Positions 743 to 41,653 are shown, counted from the stretch's first letter. The stretch: 46,354 bases of DNA from Thraustochytrium aureum (GCA_012862495.1 BLSG01000100.1:1-46354), one strand, 5' to 3'. Program-made: numbers and translations. The notes: generated by a model from the sequence alone, not told the origin.

Positions 743-2263
743 ATGACACTTCACTGCTTTACGGTGATATTCTTGGCACAGCTCCCTTCGGCGGCCCTGA
801 CGCTGGCGTACGTGGTACGGCGGAATCAGCCGCTGGTTCAAGCTCGAGGCGTTACGCGGGCGTCGGTTATGATGGGCGTGGGGCTGATGCTTGTCGAGCA
901 GGCGTGCATGGAGATGGGCCTGTGCGAGTTGAAAGTTTACACGTTTGTACTTGCCTCGTTCGCTTTGAGCGGCGTCTACTTGACCCTCTGTGGCGCCACG
1001 TGGATGGCGGTGAGGATCTTCCTGCGATACCACAAGGTCCAGCACGGAAAACTCATTGCTGCAGCGATGTTTACGGGGAGCAAATTTGGCGACAGTTTGA
1101 TGACGGATGGCCAAAGCTCCATCGCAGATTGCGAATCCGGGGAGTTTGGAGATTTGACTGACGGCCCTAGCAGAGCTCATCCATTCCTCGCTAAGATCGA
1201 GCGCATCGCTGCGGTCCTGCGGAACCGCAAGCTTCAGGTACTGTGCTTGGTGAGCTATTTCCTCGCGCTGGCAGGGAACGGGTATGCGGCGTTGCAGTCA
1301 AACTCAAATGGGCTTCAAACGGTCTGCATCGGCACCGACTGCATGAAAGAGAAAGTACTTCTGATGTTTCTCGTCGGTTTTGCGGTCTCCAGTATAATCC
1401 CGCTCGTGCCCTTGATGCTTGCAATCGTGGGCCTTCGTCTTTGCTACAAGCACATCGGATCGGACTCGCTTGGCATCAGGGAGCACTTTCGTCTGTTGGT
1501 GTGGCTCTTGGGGCTTTCGCAGAGCGTCATATTTGGTGCTCTGGTCTTGAATTTGCTCGAAGTCATCACGCCGGAGGAGACGGTCCGGGCCGCTCTTGCG
1601 GGAACGATCGCGTTCCACTTTGGTGTGCTGGGCGAACCGCTCGTGCGTGACTATATCTTCACGAGGAAACACAAGCTTGACGTGGACACGTTACGGGACA
1701 AGTCGCAGGCCGCTTTGCTGCATCACTTCCTGCAGGACCCCAAGCACCTTGCACTTTTCCAGGAGCACCTTGAAAGCGAGTTTGCAGCAGAGTCGATCCT
1801 GTTTTACAAGAACGTGATGAACTACAAGCGCGTCGCTGGACGTCCAACGACGGCAGAGAAGCGAATCAAGTCGGTATACGACAGTATCGTTGACTCGTTT
1901 TTGCGCGTCGGCGCGCCGCAAGAGATAAACGTCCCAGAGGCGCTCGTTCGCCCATTTCGGGAATTTGAAGGCGAAAAAAAAGCCGGAAAACGTGCGAAGA
2001 TTGCTCCAAAAGACGCGGTTCCGGTCGAATCGACGCTAAGCGCTTCCTCGTCGTCTTCGAGAATCGTGTTGTGGCGGACGACGCCAGACCACTTTGACAA
2101 GCTGCTTGAAGAGGTAACGAACATCATGGCAATGGAGCCGCTGTCTCGGTTTGTCGCCACGCCAAAGTACCTGCCAACATGGGAAGCTTTCGAGGCACAG
2201 GTGCGCGAGTCAGAGGTCGTCAAGCAGGAGATCCGCGAGCTCCAGGCAGCTGCGGTCACATAG
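743..2263 (+). CDS. 7TM-RGS protein (seven-transmembrane domain fused to a C-terminal RGS domain)
   Basis: 506-aa ORF with about 7 hydrophobic segments and the loop motifs RRNQPLVQARG and DSLGIREHF typical of 7TM-RGS proteins. The RGS box follows: LLHHFLQDP..LFQEHLESEFAAESILFYKNV...IVDSFLRVGAPQEINVP...MEPLSRF. Confidence 0.85.
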   Translation: MTLHCFTVIFLAQLPSAALTLAYVVRRNQPLVQARGVTRASVMMGVGLMLVEQACMEMGLCELKVYTFVLASFALSGVYLTLCGATWMAVRIFLRYHKVQHGKLIAAAMFTGSKFGDSLMTDGQSSIADCESGEFGDLTDGPSRAHPFLAKIERIAAVLRNRKLQVLCLVSYFLALAGNGYAALQSNSNGLQTVCIGTDCMKEKVLLMFLVGFAVSSIIPLVPLMLAIVGLRLCYKHIGSDSLGIREHFRLLVWLLGLSQSVIFGALVLNLLEVITPEETVRAALAGTIAFHFGVLGEPLVRDYIFTRKHKLDVDTLRDKSQAALLHHFLQDPKHLALFQEHLESEFAAESILFYKNVMNYKRVAGRPTTAEKRIKSVYDSIVDSFLRVGAPQEINVPEALVRPFREFEGEKKAGKRAKIAPKDAVPVESTLSASSSSSRIVLWRTTPDHFDKLLEEVTNIMAMEPLSRFVATPKYLPTWEAFEAQVRESEVVKQEIRELQAAAVT

Positions 2264-13707: not shown

Positions 13708-14223
13708 AGGGGTGGTTGTTGATGCAGGGTACGCCTGGGTCGCGTTCCCACACGCACGACTGCCAAGACGCGGAATGAAGCGATCTTGCTGGCCCTGAGG
13801 GCGTGAGCTTGGGTAGTGCCAGGCTGGAGAGCGTAGCGTGGTCGTTCGCAAGCACGCAAGAGGATCTGTCTCTAGCTCCAGTAGAGAGAGCGGAGTCGCA
13901 AGAGCGACTTGGTCTTTCCTTGGTTTGAAATTGCAAGAGCAAACAGACGCCATGACGATCATCGAGATAGGTATCCGGATGGCTTGTGCTGCTCTGGCGC
14001 GATGAGATCAAAAGGAAAAGAAAATAGATCCCTCTCTATNNNNNNNNNNNNNNNNNNNNNNNNNNNNNNNNNNNNNNNNNNNNNNNNNNNNNNNNNNNNN
14101 NNNNNNNNNNNNNNNNNNNNNNNNNNNNNNNNNNNNNNNNNNNNNNNNNNNNNNNTGGCGCGATGAGATCAAAAGGAAAAGAAAATAGATCCCTCTCTAT
14201 ATACTCTGGTACCCCTGGGGTTC

Positions 14224-14305
14224 GTTTCGGCGGGGGCGAAACCTCAGCAGCGTGCCTCGAGCGCGGTAGAGCTCGTTTCGGCAGGCTGTGTCATTGGCCG
14301 GAAAC
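14224..14305 (-). promoter_or_regulatory. Eukaryotic type II SECIS element in the 3'UTR of the RGS-TM gene
   Basis: The minus strand reads GTTTCCGGCCA-ATGAC-ACAGCCTGCCG-AAA-CGAGC-TCTACCGC-GCTCG-AGGCACGCTGC-TGAG-GTTTCGCCCCC-GCCGAAAC. AUGA is at 14294-14291, followed after 12 nt by AAA (14278-14276). There is a 5-bp apical mini-stem, helix II pairs CAGC/GCTG and TGCC/GGCA, the 3' UGAG is at 14246-14243, and helix I pairs GTTT(C)CGGC/GCCGAAAC. Folded by eye. Confidence 0.8.
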
Positions 14306-14345
14306 CACGCGAGCGACACCCAAAGGACTTTCAGCATCTGGCTTG

Positions 14346-15318
14346 CTACGGAATGAGCAAGATGAAAACCATGACCACAATGTCAAACATGCACGCGAAC
14401 GCCATCATCTTCCGGGCGCGTTTCCGGAGGAGAATCCGAAGCGCTGGGTTCAGCTCTGCGTGCTCCTCAGATTTTCCAGGAACCCGACAGTGCTTTCCAA
14501 CGCTCAAGCAAGGTCGTCAAACGCTGTGGCGCGTCTCGCAGGACAGTCAGAAAGTGTGCGCATGCGGTACAAATCCATATCAACCACGCCTGCAAAGCAA
14601 AAGAGCAAACCCTACTCACCGGTCGACTGACGCGGATATTCTTCGCGGCAGCCGCGTATCAGACGCGAAAAAGCGCAGAGAACAAGTACGAACTGCCAGT
14701 GTGAAGCGGCAGCAGAAGCACGAGACGCAACGCGAACGGTGCCCCGAAATGCTTCATTGCTGCAAAGAGTGCCCCCGCCAGAAGAAACCAGATCAAGGAG
14801 AACGGAATCCTCGCGCAGGCCACAGACTTGGGGATATTGTAGCTGCCTAGGTCCTCAATAAATCGCGGGAACGCGTCGATTTCAATGCTCTCTTCCACCT
14901 CGCTCTGCGCCGCTTCGAAAAGGAGCGGGTCGGTGTGTTGCTTGGCCTTGCCCAAGACCTGCGCCCGCGTAGCGGAGTTTATGTTGACCTCGTGCTCGGC
15001 CCCGGGCTCGACAAACTCTTTCACAATGATGTCGCGCATCGTCGTGGCGTCCGTGGGAGTGCTAACGCTTGCTGCGCACAGCTGGCCGCGGAGCCCACAC
15101 ACATAGTTGGGGTCGGCCGCCATGCGAAACGACTCAGCGGCGTCCCAGAACAAAATACCCTCTTCCGCTTGCTCGTCCTCCAAGAACCTCTGCAGCTCCT
15201 GTTTGAGTCCGGGCGGCGAGTCTCGCAGCACTTCCTTGAGGCGGAGGTCGAGGGCCCAGGCATTTGGTGCGTGCTGCTTCCGCGCACTGGCATCCGCAGG
15301 GTGTACTTGCCAGCCCAT
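14346..15318 (-). CDS. RGS domain plus three C-terminal TM helices (Rax1-like architecture); candidate selenoprotein with in-frame UGA at 14661-14659
   Basis: RGS box LKEVLRD..ELQRFLEDEQAEEGILFWDAAESF...EFVEPGAEHEVNINSATR...LFEAAQSEVE..DAFPRF, then two TMs, then FRV-TGA-YAAAAKNIRVSRP. A probable 96-nt intron lies at 14619-14524, followed by RLTTLLERWKALSGSWK. After a +1 indel at the A-run (14475-14472) the frame reads SEEHAELNPALRILLRKRARKMMAFACMFDIVVMVFILLIP-TAG. The first in-frame ATG is at 15318. Confidence 0.8.
14524..14619 (-). other. Probable spliceosomal intron (96 nt)
   Basis: Donor CCG|GTGAGT, CTGAC branch-site motif about 25 nt before the acceptor, and acceptor CACAG|CGT. It is phase 0, a multiple of 3, and contains no stops. 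Confidence 0.65.
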
Positions 15319-15698: not shown

Positions 15699-16571
15699 TC
15701 AGCCCAGCGCCGGCTTCATGTACATTTTGAAGAACGATGCGCTGCGCGACGTCGTCACGTTGCGCTCGATGAAAATCGGCGGCGTGCTCATGCTCTGCTT
15801 TGCCGACGTACTGTTGATCTGCTTGTACAAGAAGGCGAGCTTGTCCATCCGCTCCCGAGAGTCAAACGAGTCGTATTGGCTCCGTAGCTTGTCAAGGCGC
15901 TTCATGCGCGCTGTAACAAGCGGGAAGTCTTGAGCGCGCTCCTCGTCGTCCAGGATACGGGCGAGCGGCCGAGACGGAGCGACGACAAGCGTCTGGCTCC
16001 AAGGCTCCTTTGTCGCTGGGGTGCTCCGTGGGAGCATGGAGAACTCGACCTTGCGCTCGGCAGAGTCGGTGTCTTGGAATTGCGGGGAGTACCCGTACCC
16101 GTACGCCCCGTACGTAAAGTATATCTCGAGAGAGACGTTGCCGACGGGGCGGTGGCACTTGAGCACAGAGAAGGACCCCGCCGACGGCGCGCCCTTGACG
16201 AGATCATGCACGTGAAAGGGCACGGATCCTAATACATACTCGGAGTTGTGAATTGCCACATTGAAGGGGACGTGATGTGGCGCAGCAATAATGTCGACTT
16301 GGAATAGATTGAACGGGTGGCGCGGGTCGCGGATCACACGAAGTGGAAAGTATGCCATCTCGCCCCACGCGAGTCGCGACCCCCAGCGCTTGGCGTTCTC
16401 CGTGTACTTTGTGATGTTGCGAACGCGCAAGCGCGCGAATACAAAGGCGTCCTTCTCTGTCGCCTCGCGCACGTCGGCCGAGACAACCTTGACGGCAAGA
16501 ACGCCGCTCACGAGCGGAAAGGCGTTCTCGCCGTCCAGGAGCTCGGCGACCTGCTTTGCGGCCTCGGCCTC
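15699..16571 (-). CDS. C2-domain protein resembling C2CD6/ALS2CR11 (CatSper-tau); 5' end in N gap
   Basis: C2-like strands GVLAVKVVSA..FVFARLRV..KYT..LAWGEMAYFPL..VLGSVPFHVHDLV..VGNVSLEIYF, followed by TYGAYGYGYSPQ, which resembles the post-C2 motif I recall for the C2CD6 family. Confidence 0.6.
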   Translation of the reverse strand, partial: EAEAAKQVAELLDGENAFPLVSGVLAVKVVSADVREATEKDAFVFARLRVRNITKYTENAKRWGSRLAWGEMAYFPLRVIRDPRHPFNLFQVDIIAAPHHVPFNVAIHNSEYVLGSVPFHVHDLVKGAPSAGSFSVLKCHRPVGNVSLEIYFTYGAYGYGYSPQFQDTDSAERKVEFSMLPRSTPATKEPWSQTLVVAPSRPLARILDDEERAQDFPLVTARMKRLDKLRSQYDSFDSRERMDKLAFLYKQINSTSAKQSMSTPPIFIERNVTTSRSASFFKMYMKPALG

Positions 16572-17502: not shown

Positions 17503-19015
17503 ATGCAGGCCATCCATGTGTTTGAAAGTTACCAGAAGGCGCGGCAGACGTTTGCTCAGTCCGTGGCCGACATGGCTTCTCGGCCGCAGAACATAGAGTT
17601 TCTGCAGAACGCGGGCGTGATGCAGCTGCTGAGGCCGCTGCTCCTCGACAACGTGCCGAGCATCCAGCAGACCGCGGTCGCTTGCGCTGGGGCGGCTGGC
17701 CAACTATTCGGACGACCTCGCGGAGGCGGTCGTGTCGAACGACATCCTGTCGCAGCTGGTCACGTCGTTGTCGGAGCAAAACCGGTTCTACAAAAAGGCG
17801 GCTGCCTTTGTGCTCCGGTCGGTGGCCAAGCACTCGCCCGAGCTGGCGCATGCCGTGGTGGACGCCAGCGCGCTTGGCTCGCTGTGCAACTGCCTCGAGG
17901 AGTTTGACCCGAGCGTCAAGGAGGCTGCGGCATGGGCGATTGGGTACATTGCCGGGCACACGTCTGAGCTGGCCACCGCGATCGTCGACTCGGGCGCAGT
18001 CCCGCTGCTGATCCTGTGTATCCAGGAGCCCGAGCTGTCGCTCAAGCGCATCTGCGCTTCGGCGCTGTCGGACATTTGCAAGCACTCGCCGGAGCTCGCG
18101 CAGGCCGTCGTGGACTGCGGCGCAGTGCCGTACCTGGCGCCGCTAATCTCGCACAACGACGCCAAACTGAAACGGCAGGCGTGTGGTGCTCTGGCGCAGA
18201 TCGCCAAGCACTCGGTTGACCTTGCCGAGATGGTGGTGGAGGCAGAGATCTTCCCGAACATCCTAACCTGCCTGCAGGACGACGACACGTATGTCCAGAA
18301 GAACGCGGCGACCTGCATCCGCGAGGTGGCCAAGCACACCCCAGAGCTTGCCAAGTTGATCGTCAACGCGGGCGGCGCGGCGGCGCTCGTCGACTACGTT
18401 GCCAACTCGAAGGGCAACATCCGGCTGCCGGGCATCATGGCGCTGGGGTACATTTCGGCCTTTTCCGAGACGCTGGCCCTCGCCGTGGTCGTCTCCAAGG
18501 GCATCGAGCCGCTCAAGGACGCGCTCATCCACGAACCGGAGGACCACATCAAGGCCGCGGCGGCTTGGTCGCTTGGCCAGGTGGGTCGCCACACGCCAGA
18601 CCACGCCCAGGCCGTGGCCGAGGCGGACGTGCTCCGGCGCCTGCTCGCTGTGTACATGTCGGTGGACAGCTCGGAGGACCTCAAGGTCAAGGCGAAGCGG
18701 GCGCTCAAGGCGATTCTGAAAAAGTGCACCGCGCTCGGCGCTCTGGAGCCGCTTATGCGCGAGGCGCCGACCAACATTGTCAAGTACATTCTGGCGCAGT
18801 TTGCCAAGGTGCTCCCGAACGACCGCGTGGCCAAGCGGTCGTTCGTTCAGTCGGGAGGCCTCCAGATGGTGCAGGAGCTCAACGAGACGGTCGGCGCGGA
18901 GCTCGCCGAGTCGATCCAGGCCATAAACGCGTGCTACCCGCCCGAGATTGTCGAGTACTACTCGCCCAAATATGCGGACAAACTGATGCAGATGATCGAC
19001 GACCCGTCCGAGTGA
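17503..19015 (+). CDS. SPAG6: Sperm-associated antigen 6 / PF16 axonemal central-apparatus armadillo-repeat protein; one extra base at ~17678
   Basis: VFESYQKARQTFAQSVADMASRPQNIE..LLRPLLLDNVPSIQQTA in one frame, continuing LALGRLANYSDDLAEAVV..SLSEQNRFYKKAAAFVLRSVAKHSPELA..CLEEFDPSVKEAAAWA...CYPPEIVEYYSP in the next frame. Confidence 0.95.
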
Positions 19016-37919: not shown

Positions 37920-40900
37920 TTACCGGCCGTTCCCATCGGAAGGTCCTCGAATGATCGGGAGGTCGCGGCCCCTGCGTCGCTGGCGCGACTGCCGAAAGCT
38001 GTCTGTGACTGCGTCGCCGTGGTTTGCGGGCGTTTGCGATGCGTCGCTCTCCGCCGTCGCCAGCTTGGCGGCAGTCGTCCCGGCTGGTCCACCCGTCGAG
38101 CGCCCACTGTCCATCTTTGTCTCCGCGCCTTGGCGCTGGTGCGTCTTGTACGACCAGACGCTCACCTTCTCCATGTCCCAAACACCATCCCAGTCCGGGT
38201 GGCTGAAACCGCCATTCTCGAGGAGATGGCAGCAACGGTCTTCGAAGAGAACCGAGGGCGCATCGCCGAGGTCTGCAGCTCGCTCGAAGATCTTGAATGC
38301 GCCGTGGATATCCTTGGCGCGATAGACGCGTAACCCGTCTTTGTACTCTCGCAAGGCGCTGATTTTCTCCGGCGACGCCACGTCGGAGAGCCTCTTGGCA
38401 AAGCCCAGTACCTCAAAAAGACGCGTGACATCGTCTTTGCCTGCGACACGCACCACATCGACCTCGCGAAGGAACAGACGCGGCTCTGCCGCCTCCGTAC
38501 ACTCCTCTGTGAAATCGCTTGCTTCCATCTGGTCGAGAACGACAACCGGAGCGCCGCAGTCGACCAAGTCTCGGTACGTGGAATCGCTGACCAAGTTGGA
38601 GAGTCCGTACTCTTTGGTGCTCGACTCAAGCCTGGAAGCCACGTTCACTGCGTCGCCGATTACGGTGTACTCGAACCGGTTTTCCGATCCAATGTTGCCA
38701 CTGTACACTTCGCCCGTGCTCACGCCCACGCCAATCTTGATTGCCGGTTTCCCCGTTGCAGCGCGCCCCTCGTTAAACCGAGCCAGCTCGTACTCCATCG
38801 CAACCGCCGCCTTGCAGGCGTTCGTCGAGTCTTGAGGAGTGGCATTGGGCACGCCAAAGACTGCCATGAGCGCATCCCCGATAAACTTGTCCACAATCCC
38901 GCCATGCTTGGTGATGACCTCGACCATGCAGGAAAAGTACTCGTTGAGCGTCTGGAAAACCTCAGAGGGCCCCACCTCCTCGCTGAACGTTGTAAATCCG
39001 CGGATGTCGGAGAACAAGATGCTCACCTTTTGCTTGGTGCCGCCGAGCTGGAGTTTTTCCGTCTTGAGTCAAAAGATGGTGCACGATGTCTGGGGCGAGG
39101 TACTTGTTGAGCGTCTGCTTGAGCTTTTGCTCTGGCGTTTTGTCGTCAATGCAGAGCACGGCGCCAAGGAGCCGCTTCTCGTCATCTTCCAGGAATACAT
39201 GCGCGTTCGACTCGACGTTGTCCGCGATGTTGAGCGCGAAGATCGACTCGTCCCTGTTGATCCCGAGCCTGCTCGCGGGCCCCTGCGGCCTGGAAGGCGC
39301 ACTGGTGGACGACGACGACGCGCTTCCGATGGCCGCCAGGCTGTTGTTTAGTCCAGGGGCAGAGGCGAAGGGCGTGCGCCCGCCTTGCCACGCGCGCTCA
39401 GTTTGGACTCTGCTCACCTCGGACGAGGAAATGTCGAACGGAAACTCGCTCGAGAGACCAGACGAGCTCCGCAACGACGCGCTCCGCACCTCCCCAAGTT
39501 GAACGCCGCCTGTCTTGCACTGGAGACGCACTAGGTCGTCAAAGCTCGTGCCCACGCCGACGAGCGGCTTGATCGTGTAGTTGACAATGTGGGCTGTGTT
39601 GCTGACAAGGTAGTCGGATCGCACGACCCCAATATCTGCCATTTTGTCCGGCGAGCAGTTGTTGGACTTGGCCAAGACCGACCGCAGCTCGTGCCCATAT
39701 TTTGATCCGGCAGCCAATCCATGACGGCCTCAGTCCTCATGCGCTCCGCAGACACGGGCGTCTCGGCGCCGAACAGCGCGTTGATAGCCCGGCTCCCGCG
39801 ATTGCTCCCCATCAGCATGCCGTTGCGGTCCACCGTGATGACGACCTCAGAAACATTGTCCAACACGCACTTGAGCCGGTTCTGCACAATGAACGCTTGC
39901 GAAAAGAGGTCCATGTTTGAGATGGTCACTCCCAGCATGGAAAACATGCCCCAAAGCAGGCGCTCGTCGTCCTCGTCAAAGCTCAAGTCCCGATTGCTCC
40001 CTCCGTCGTATGCGACGCTTCCCTTGGACGGGTCGCGCAACGAAGCTGTCATCATGGGGGTGCCTTTCATTTTCATGGACGAATTGGGCCCCCCTCTGCC
40101 CTGTGTCTCTACGTCGTCCTCTTGGTCGTTTGCATCGGCGAATGTCTCGCTGCGCTTGTTGATCAGCTGGACGACAGCCACGACTTGGCCTCGCGAGTTT
40201 TTGATTGCCCCACAGAGGACTGACCGCGTGCGGAACTTTGTGGCGGTATCAACGTCCTTGTTGAAGCGCTTGTCGAGATAGGCGTCCTCGACGTTCACCA
40301 TCTCGCCCGTGCGCGCCACATAGCCCACAATGCCTTTGTCCATCGGCAGTGTGATGATCTCGTCGTTGTGCGCCGCTCCCCACTCTTGCGAGAAACTCTT
40401 GTCCACGGTCCACAACACCTTGTCGTTGTGGTTCACGAAAAAAACCGAGCAGCGCTCGGTGTGGAACGTCTCTTGGAGCTTGCAAATAATCATGTCGATC
40501 AGGGAATGTACGTCCAGTTGGGAGCCGAGCGAGACAGCCACGTCAAGCATTGCTTCTTTGCGCAACCTCTCCTTTCGCTCTTTGTCTCGCATTTTGGTAT
40601 GTGCGACGAACCCAGATACAATCGTCGCCACAGTTTCCAGAAGCGCCGTCTCCTCCTGCGAAAAGGGCGTTCCGTCAAGCTTGTTCATTACTTGGATAAC
40701 AGCCTCCACCTCCATGTGGGCTTGCGCCTCCATGCCCGCGCTTGGGAGTGGCGTGGACAAAGCCCTGCTACAGTCGACGGTAGCTCGTGGTGTATGCGAC
40801 TCGTCCTTGTCGCCCTCCTCGGCGATTGGACGTGCCAAGGAAGGGGCACCCTGGCCCGCCATGGTGCCCGGGTTTTGAACGTCGACACTGCTTCGGGGTT

Positions 40901-41653
40901 CTCCGGGCGAGTTGGTGCTGCCGCGGTGCATCGGCCAAAACCCCACAGGGATTGTCAACAACTGTTTGGTGCGGTACCTTGTCTTCTCATCGAGGAGGGC
41001 GCAGAATCGGCCGTCTTTGTATGCGTCGGGGACACTCACCGACACGCCGTTTCTTACAACCCAGCCCGCAATGCCTTTGTCGATTGGGATCGTCAAGGAT
41101 GCGTTGCTGTCAGTCGCCCGGAGGCCAGCCTGGCGGACGATCTGGACGCGAAGCAGCCGCTGCTCCTTGTCCACCATGTAGAGCACCGCGCGCTGGGCTC
41201 CAACAAGATCGCACACTGTGCGAATGAGGAAGGTGAACTGCGATCGCGAGTCGTGCCTCAGCGACAGCTCGCGCGCCAGCGTGTTGACCTGCAGCACACG
41301 TTTGAGTTGGATGAGCGATTCGCTCAGGAGGCCCTCGCGTCGCTGGTGATTTGGCCGCTCACGATTTCGCGCGCGTAAGCGGCGACTTCGGTGTTGGAGC
41401 TGTGCTCGACAAACTCGTGGAGTTTCTTGGCCTTCTCCGCGATGCGCGGGGAGCTGCGCGGCTCTGCCGGGGGGCTACCTATGTGCTGCGCATTGCGTTC
41501 GGCCTCAGTGCCACCCTCGCTGGCTGCCAAAGGGGAGGTTGGTTGCGTGCCATCGTCAGCGCCTGGTTGAAGCTTGCTCTTGCCGGAGAAGGTGCTGCTC
41601 GTCCATTTGCTGCTCGCGCCGTGTCCACCAGGCGCCGAAACAGCTCCACCCAT
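37920..41653 (-). CDS. GAF-GAF-PAS class III adenylate cyclase (CyaB-like) with a C-terminal TPR-like tail; three apparent frameshifts (~41360, ~39700, ~39056)
   Basis: Two GAF domains (DKGIAGWV..DAYKDGRF..MNK..PFSQEE; DKGIVGYVARTG..DAYLDKRFN..INK..FDEDDE) and a PAS segment (LDNVSEVVITVDRNG). Catalytic motifs ILFSDIRGFTTFSE, DKFIGDALMAVFG and EYTVIGDAVNVASRLE. Tail DRC..DWDGVW. N-terminus MGGAVS. Confidence 0.9.

Follow-up and report, generated by a model that had tools for sequence, protein, structure and literature searches.

Does the RGS-domain gene on the minus strand of a 46,354-nt stretch of Thraustochytrium aureum DNA (GCA_012862495.1, BLSG01000100.1:1-46354; hereafter the window) end at its first in-frame UGA, or is this UGA read as selenocysteine (Sec) with the help of a SECIS hairpin further downstream? 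A first-pass annotation had placed a type II SECIS element at 14224-14305 in the 3′UTR of the gene and had taken it as support for Sec recoding. We consider it probable, at roughly four chances in five, that the hairpin is a genuine type II SECIS and that UGA 14661-14659 is a Sec codon. The proposal is supported by the gene context and not by the motif: the Cys present in homologues at the UGA column, the predicted homologues truncated there, the two relatives for which DNA could be located and the match of the downstream sequence to the C-terminal part of the family decide the case. As an RNA element the hairpin is of a known type and the interest lies in the gene that it serves.

The coding part before the UGA (14662-15318, minus strand) specifies 219 amino acids, comprising an RGS domain at approximately 14851-15240 followed by two hydrophobic helices. 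Pfam RGS (PF00615) matches this ORF with 64.2 bits (E = 1.9e-17) against a cut-off of 23.9, and its GC content by codon position (0.63/0.43/0.74) is like that of the neighbouring genes. The UGA that closes the ORF, our predicted Sec codon, lies at 14659-14661. TGA ends 8 of the 16 other readable ORFs in the window, a SPAG6-like gene included, and is the commonest ORF end; UGA is therefore an ordinary stop in the window and not generally reassigned, which rules out global UGA reassignment. A domain scan of 16 other ORFs revealed genes ordinary for a eukaryote, namely those for GPDH, a class II tRNA synthetase, a sterol-sensing membrane protein, a hydrolase, a W2-domain factor, ADH, P450, a mannosyltransferase and a GAF-cyclase. 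No Sec-machinery domain was present among them and no tRNA genes were found in the window. The gene directly upstream of the RGS gene (15702-16571, minus strand) can be followed for 290 amino acids up to an N-run; its coding signature is strong and Pfam gave no match at E ≤ 0.01. Adjoining ORFs at 37923-41474 (minus strand) with GAF domains and an adenylate/guanylate cyclase catalytic domain probably constitute one GAF-cyclase gene, another signalling gene nearby.

The SECISearch consensus for eukaryotic type II SECIS elements consists of AUGA, AA and GA. The element in the window extends from the 5′ arm to the 3′ arm of helix I (14224-14305, minus strand), as delimited from the sequence and from constrained and free folds, and all of the consensus SECIS features are present within it. 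The 5′ core AUGA (14291-14294) is preceded by A14295 and followed by C14290, giving the AAUGAC that is common to both relatives described below. A 12-nt spacer (C14290 to G14279) separates AUGA from an unpaired AAA (14276-14278), the AAR motif, which forms an invariant column in an alignment of the three hairpins (A7). The 5′ strand of helix II (14280-14289, 10 positions) pairs with its 3′ strand (14256-14247), a register supported by the constrained fold and the three-hairpin alignment; 8 of the 10 positions are Watson-Crick pairs, the two mismatches being A14289/C14247, which adjoins the core, and C14284/C14252. Above the AAR bulge lies the extra mini-stem that distinguishes type II elements (14258-14275), in which CGAGC (14275-14271) pairs with GCUCG (14262-14258) to form 5 bp capped by an 8-nt loop. 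The 3′ core UGA-G (14243-14246) is made up of U14246, G14245 and A14244 and then G14243, its UGA being opposed to AAUGA (14295-14291) across helix II. By analogy with the SECIS consensus, the tandem sheared G.A/A.G pairs would be formed by G14245 and A14244 on this side and by A14291 and G14292 on the other. Helix I is composed of 8 bp, GUUUC (14305-14301) with GAAAC (14228-14224) and GGC (14299-14297) with GCC (14231-14229). Both the length of helix II and the 12-nt spacing from AUGA to AA fall within the ranges of SECIS elements (about 9-12 bp and 10-13 nt respectively).

The individual parts reported in the first-pass annotation for the minus strand, AUGA-N12-AAA, the CGAGC/GCTCG mini-stem, a helix II of eight pairs, UGAG and helix I, were all recovered. 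The constrained and free folds reproduce the hairpin, including its upper stem in free folding, though its stability is not above that of shuffled sequences (see below). The distance from AA to GA, previously put at about 31 nt and regarded as slightly longer than in the usual animal pattern, came to about 30 nt; the larger mini-stem and loop make it 5 nt longer than that of either relative. In common with eukaryotic type II (form 2) SECIS elements (Rfam RF00031, SECIS_1) the hairpin has the AAUGA 5′ core, the UGA 3′ core, a 10-position helix II, AAA 12 nt past AUGA, an apical mini-stem, helix I and, by the gene model, a 3′UTR site a few hundred nt past the UGA. It is unlike them in being GC-rich, in its two helix II mismatches, in its larger apical part (5-bp mini-stem, 8-nt loop), in the long 3′ side of its internal loop (about 11 nt) and in scoring under the SECIS_1 reporting level.

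We utilized our own SECISearch-like scan ([AG]UGA, 10-13 nt, AA, 12-36 nt, GA, followed by a constrained fold) to compare the hairpin with other candidates in the window, where it ranked first of 187 pattern matches with an upper stem of -18.7 kcal/mol, the next best having -16.9 and -15.7. At least one equally good hairpin was present in 24 of 60 dinucleotide shuffles of the window (mean 0.57). The bare motif is real yet at chance level, at about one per two windows. Free folding gave no indication of stability above shuffles, with z = -0.49 in one test (56 of 200 shuffles as stable) and z = -0.94 in a second (34 of 200). It is the location, not the motif, that exceeds chance, the hairpin lying on the expected strand and its AUGA following the TAG of a homology-supported frame at a distance of 51 nt. 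Arithmetic from the shuffles gives an expectation of approximately 0.001 chance hairpins of equal quality in the 190 nt of the minus strand between this TAG and the next N-run. Between the TAG and the next gene no other candidate of the [AG]UGA..AA..GA form has a spanning helix.

Covariance models did not recognise the hairpin. Rfam SECIS_1 had no match in the whole window at its gathering score (35 bits), nor any at E ≤ 10 when segments of 801 nt and 106 nt were searched, an outcome which the first-pass annotation had itself named as speaking against the element. A second model, R1, built from the hairpins of the two relatives, found nothing in the window at E ≤ 10; its sole match in the 3′ flank (14156-14360) was unrelated, on the opposite strand and of 1.2 bits. 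As the covariance models are silent on the window hairpin, the decision has to rest on gene context.

Alignment shows homology between the sequence past the UGA and the C-terminal part of the family. The 13 codons directly past the UGA (14620-14658, minus strand), YAAAAKNIRVSRP, correspond in the alignment to the motif found past the Cys in the family. Next comes a predicted 96-nt intron (14524-14619), an insert with respect to all 33 aligned homologues, which starts with GUGAGU and has a CUGAC branch-like site 22-26 nt before its CAG; it equals 32 codons, in frame and stop-free, without the GC pattern of coding sequence. The last coding part (14349-14523), delimited by hhalign and hydropathy, ends in a C-terminal hydrophobic helix and is closed by TAG 14348-14346. 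In the window as given a frameshift at 14472-14475 cuts the extension after 63 codons, and these first 63 codons past the UGA are also without a coding GC pattern. Downstream homology resumes in the +1 frame with 41 amino acids from 14471-14349 (...ALRILLRKRARK, the hydrophobic helix, ...LLIP and then TAG), and comparison of this piece with family alignment A1 by hhalign returned P = 5.2e-6 and a probability of 86 %.

Contigs of the available runs bear on both the frameshift and the intron. Where the window has AAAA at 14472-14475, contigs of X1, X2 and X4 lack one base and read AGA, in agreement with the clipped end of an X3 contig (4 of the 4 covering runs). The extra base is taken here as an assembly error or a strain-specific lesion, although the frameshift could be decay instead of an assembly error. 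Read with the shorter version of the runs, the frame stays open from UGA to TAG over 103 codons, or over 71 codons without the intron; homologues have 56-90 residues past the Cys. The predicted product amounts to about 291 residues once the 96-nt intron is removed. An open frame of 103 codons has by itself P ≈ 0.15 in GC-rich DNA such as that of the window and was dropped as evidence, the argument being carried by homology. Contigs of X2 and X4, which are RNA by guess only, span 14160-14876 in one piece. The run contigs are colinear with the DNA at 14619-14524 and contain no splice joint there (X2-X4 again being RNA by guess only), so the 96-nt intron stays a prediction only. Run X5 covers 15810-16096 only, while X6 and X7 cover nothing.

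We noted two further irregularities of the assembly. The 116-N run at 14040-14155 is preceded by 45 nt (13995-14039) identical to the 45 nt that follow it (14156-14200), and the X1 and X2 contigs run from 14160 into letters largely matching its left flank; the N-run is a false gap. No such flanking duplication was seen at the other 10 N-runs of the window. An armadillo-repeat gene resembling SPAG6/PF16 (approximately 17505-19012, plus strand) seems to change frame without an intron near 17670-17680, its ATG-started frame reaching to about 17680 and a 460-amino acid Arm-repeat ORF overlapping it in another frame. Judged from a reading of the two frames, with Pfam applied to the second ORF only, this looks like a second one-base assembly indel.

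A set of predicted proteins that all stop at an invariant Cys of their relatives is the classic sign of a misannotated Sec codon. We searched 1.84 billion representative proteins with phmmer (E ≤ 0.001) and aligned all 80 matches to the family profile with hmmalign. Cys occupies the UGA column in 27 of the 80, while 14 predicted homologues end at it (11 exactly one residue before the column and 3 within one residue of it). Phe was found in 2, one of them on a doubtful alignment, and the remaining 37 are RGS-only matches that fall short of the column. A MAFFT alignment of 33 matches plus the query gave 22 Cys, 10 ends and 1 other residue at the same position. Across 25 full-length Cys forms only 4 columns are invariant, this Cys among them; the C-terminal helix and the motif that succeeds Cys/Sec are conserved as well, as expected of a Sec/Cys family. 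At least 14 database entries of the family, including the named entry GBG29140.1 from the thraustochytrid Hondaea fermentalgiana, are probably truncated at a UGA that is a Sec codon. About 25 residues past the Cys/Sec column of alignment A1 a subfamily consisting entirely of Cys forms (for example P0015, P0019, P0020, P0028, P0029, P0031, P0045, P0047 and P0056) has a second conserved Cys within a C-P motif, where other members, the window included, have D/N-P. This second Cys could be a disulfide partner for the invariant Cys.

A maximum-likelihood tree was constructed from 42 rows, made up of the 27 Cys forms cut at the Cys, the 14 Sec-type sequences and the window. The window falls within a supported clade (95/91) of 5 rows, all of them Sec-type, and a second supported clade contains 6 Sec and 2 Cys forms. 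Within this second clade Sec and Cys forms are sisters in the pairs P0012/P0016 (100/97) and P0036/P0007 (98/92). At least 3 Sec/Cys exchanges are forced by the tree and 7 are most parsimonious, the deeper placements being unsure because several branches are long. Such a pattern is the usual one for selenoprotein families.

DNA of Sec-type relatives was sought in metagenomes, genome contigs and viral contigs. The metagenome scan with alignment A4 identified 6 loci. Two of them, L001 and L002, are family members; the other four (L003-L006) were rejected as RGS-only genes without the membrane part. A metagenome scan with alignment A3 matched 486 stretches with none confirmed, the sole find among genome contigs (L007) was rejected as a bacterial RGS-like ORF without membrane helices, and no family locus was found in viral contigs. 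L001 encodes P0026 exactly and L002 encodes a protein identical to P0011, the two having a mutual identity of 44 %. Both relatives have TGA at the UGA column (3152-3154 in L001 and 2624-2626 in L002). In each the TGA is followed by four full codons, S-G-L-A, and one base, then by a GT..AG intron of 51 nt in L001 and 48 nt in L002, after which the frame continues through the family motif and the C-terminal hydrophobic helix to the true stop, TAG 3428-3430 in L001 and TGA 2900-2902 in L002. These phase-1 introns (regions 3155-3218 of L001 and 2627-2688 of L002) share one site; the predicted intron of the window sits elsewhere, 13 codons past the UGA. Upstream of the gene in L001, positions 1313-1525 (plus strand) have weak overlapping matches to C/D-box snoRNAs with repeated UGAUGA...CUGA boxes, the best being sR17 (23.2 bits, E = 0.046), and may represent a snoRNA cluster.

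Each of the two relatives has a SECIS-like hairpin past its true stop, at 3476-3522 in L001 and 2919-2965 in L002, with AAUGAC, a 10-position helix, AAA, a mini-stem and UGAU. Full-length alignment to Rfam SECIS_1 scored 19.8 bits for L001 and 13.4 bits for L002, neither of which reaches the gathering score (35). A search of both strands of 7.3 kb gave no SECIS_1 match apart from that in L001, whose E-value of 5.3 spans 4227 families; by arithmetic this corresponds to about 0.001 for SECIS_1 alone. In our own scan the L002 hairpin was the best candidate of its locus and the L001 hairpin had the most spanning pairs. The three hairpins, including that of the window, could be aligned from AAUGAC to UGA with a single helix II register. 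In these three sequences, chosen for their fit to the pattern, 25 of the 30 helix II cells are paired (83 %) and 7 of the 10 pairs have changed on both sides, while sliding the 3′ partners by 1-3 columns leaves 30-53 % of cells paired with at most 1 pair changed on both sides. Pairing in this alignment is partly by construction, because the hairpins were picked for fitting the pattern. The hairpins of L001 and L002 are like that of the window in gene family, UGA column, register and a site just past the true stop, and unlike it in being AU-rich, in their mini-stems of 3-4 bp, in an AAA-to-GA distance shorter by 5 nt and in being recognised by SECIS_1 below its threshold.

The position of the hairpin in the gene model is closely comparable across the three loci. 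The AUGA of the window, 51 nt past TAG 14348-14346, is some 268 nt past the UGA with the 96-nt intron out, in agreement with the correct strand and the approximately 270 spliced nt claimed in the first-pass annotation. In the relatives the hairpin lies 45 nt (L001) and 16 nt (L002) past the stop and about 271 and 245 nt past the UGA. These distances bear on the possibility that the UGA is read as Sec by way of another SECIS elsewhere in the 3′UTR, or one with a non-canonical core, and that the hairpin is a chance look-alike. The failure of every covariance model to score the hairpin, its two helix II mismatches and the 0.57 equally good chance hairpins expected per window would all be consistent with a look-alike. 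However, the hairpin is the sole pattern candidate in the 3′ flank and the best in the window, its distances from stop and UGA match those of the relatives and only about 0.001 chance matches are expected in the 190-nt stretch. We consider a SECIS other than this hairpin unlikely.

A true stop at the UGA is very improbable in our estimation. In that case mutation of a Cys codon to TGA would have left a truncated or decaying copy of the gene, with relic homology downstream and a chance hairpin. TGC or TGT becomes TGA by one change, the extension in the window carries a frameshift, the stretch right past the UGA is without a coding GC pattern and TGA is the commonest ORF end of the window, as such a copy would lead one to expect. 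Decay of one copy does not, however, account for the 14 other predicted homologues from several clades which end at the same column, for the TGA followed by an intact conserved extension in both of the relatives with DNA, or for a frame that is intact in 4 of 4 runs covering the site, a C-terminal piece that keeps family-level similarity and a SECIS-like hairpin at the expected place. SECIS-independent read-through or local reassignment, for instance with Cys or Trp inserted through a suppressor or near-cognate tRNA and with the hairpin irrelevant, can be largely dismissed. In its favour, an open homologous frame past the UGA points to continued translation and not to the inserted residue. Against it, the recoded position is an invariant Cys in a classic Sec/Cys exchange, TGA otherwise ends ORFs in the window and SECIS-like hairpins occur at 3 of 3 loci, two of them sub-threshold in Rfam SECIS_1.

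On our preferred reading, in which the hairpin is a type II SECIS that serves the UGA, it would be transcribed as part of the mRNA of the RGS-membrane gene, within its 3′UTR, and would fold into a kink-turn with sheared G.A pairs. The folded element would bind SBP2 and eEFSec with Sec-tRNA, a machinery the organism would be expected to possess, and the ribosome would read UGA 14661-14659 as selenocysteine and not as a stop. The product would consist of a cytosolic RGS domain and two membrane helices with Sec at the cytosolic end of helix 2, followed by a loop of some 45 residues and, at the C-terminus, a third membrane helix.

The Cys form P0016 was modelled with AlphaFold at high confidence (mean pLDDT 89.4, pTM 0.83). 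The model comprises the RGS domain, helices at 158-187 and 194-216, a loop and a last helix at 253-283; Cys 219 falls in a break of three residues that precedes a short helix (220-225). By this model Sec would lie where membrane helix 2 ends, on the side that the RGS domain also occupies. Foldseek with the same model matched the RGS part only, to RGS1, RGS8 and RGS4, with TM-scores of 0.7-0.8 on the target. Score and modelled fold together place the family among RGS proteins, with putative GAP activity. The nearest named ESM Atlas clusters, as a lead only, are those of fungal Rax1 (RGS plus RAX1_C; score 0.84), and RAX1_C occurs in 16-29 % of members of the nearest Atlas clusters (score 0.82-0.84). 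A Pfam scan of 11 full-length homologues at E ≤ 1 found RGS alone, RAX1_C (PF27892) being seemingly absent from the model set. One long match, P0067, has the Cys and the terminal helix and looks like a Rax1-type protein.

In the small membrane selenoproteins SelK and SelS, Sec lies outside a thioredoxin fold and near the C-terminus. In common with the predicted protein of the window they have Sec in a cytosolic segment by a membrane helix and no CxxU-type motif. The window protein, unlike them, is an RGS protein with Sec between membrane helices 2 and 3, and bears no sequence relationship to either. Fungal Rax1/RgsB proteins, as described in PMC7693823, share with the window family an N-terminal RGS domain followed by membrane helices. 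They are longer and, as far as seen, carry Cys, and no Sec form of them was found to be reported. In Aspergillus fumigatus RgsB/Rax1 is reported to be needed for conidial tolerance of oxidative stress (PMC7693823). For the window gene this is suggestive and not evidence.

The eukaryotic selenoproteins known to date are, with few exceptions, oxidoreductases or small proteins without an assigned function. No report of an RGS-domain selenoprotein was found in the full-text literature, most subscription journals lying outside the search. A survey entitled 'The algal selenoproteomes' (PMC7539508) lists 42 families in 137 algae, and in the passages of its main text covered here the terms RGS, G-protein and transmembrane have no occurrences. 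A selenoprotein family of RGS proteins with three membrane helices and repeated Sec/Cys exchange is thus apparently undescribed. Where the curated Rfam model misses a GC-rich SECIS such as that of the window, screens relying on the model only would overlook the gene.

As for the function of the residue, we would guess that Sec provides a Rax1-like G-protein regulator with a switch that is sensitive to redox state or dependent on selenium. A broader reading, which we put forward tentatively and with considerable doubt, is that the window gene represents the founding selenoprotein of heterotrimeric G-protein signalling, a Rax1-like RGS protein in which an invariant membrane-edge Cys was exchanged for Sec several times in marine protists, with Sec as a redox or selenium-supply switch by which G-protein signalling would be tuned at the membrane. 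If true, an RGS membrane protein containing Sec would extend the use of selenium to G-protein signalling, and the invariant Cys would be singled out as the functionally critical residue of the Rax1-like family.
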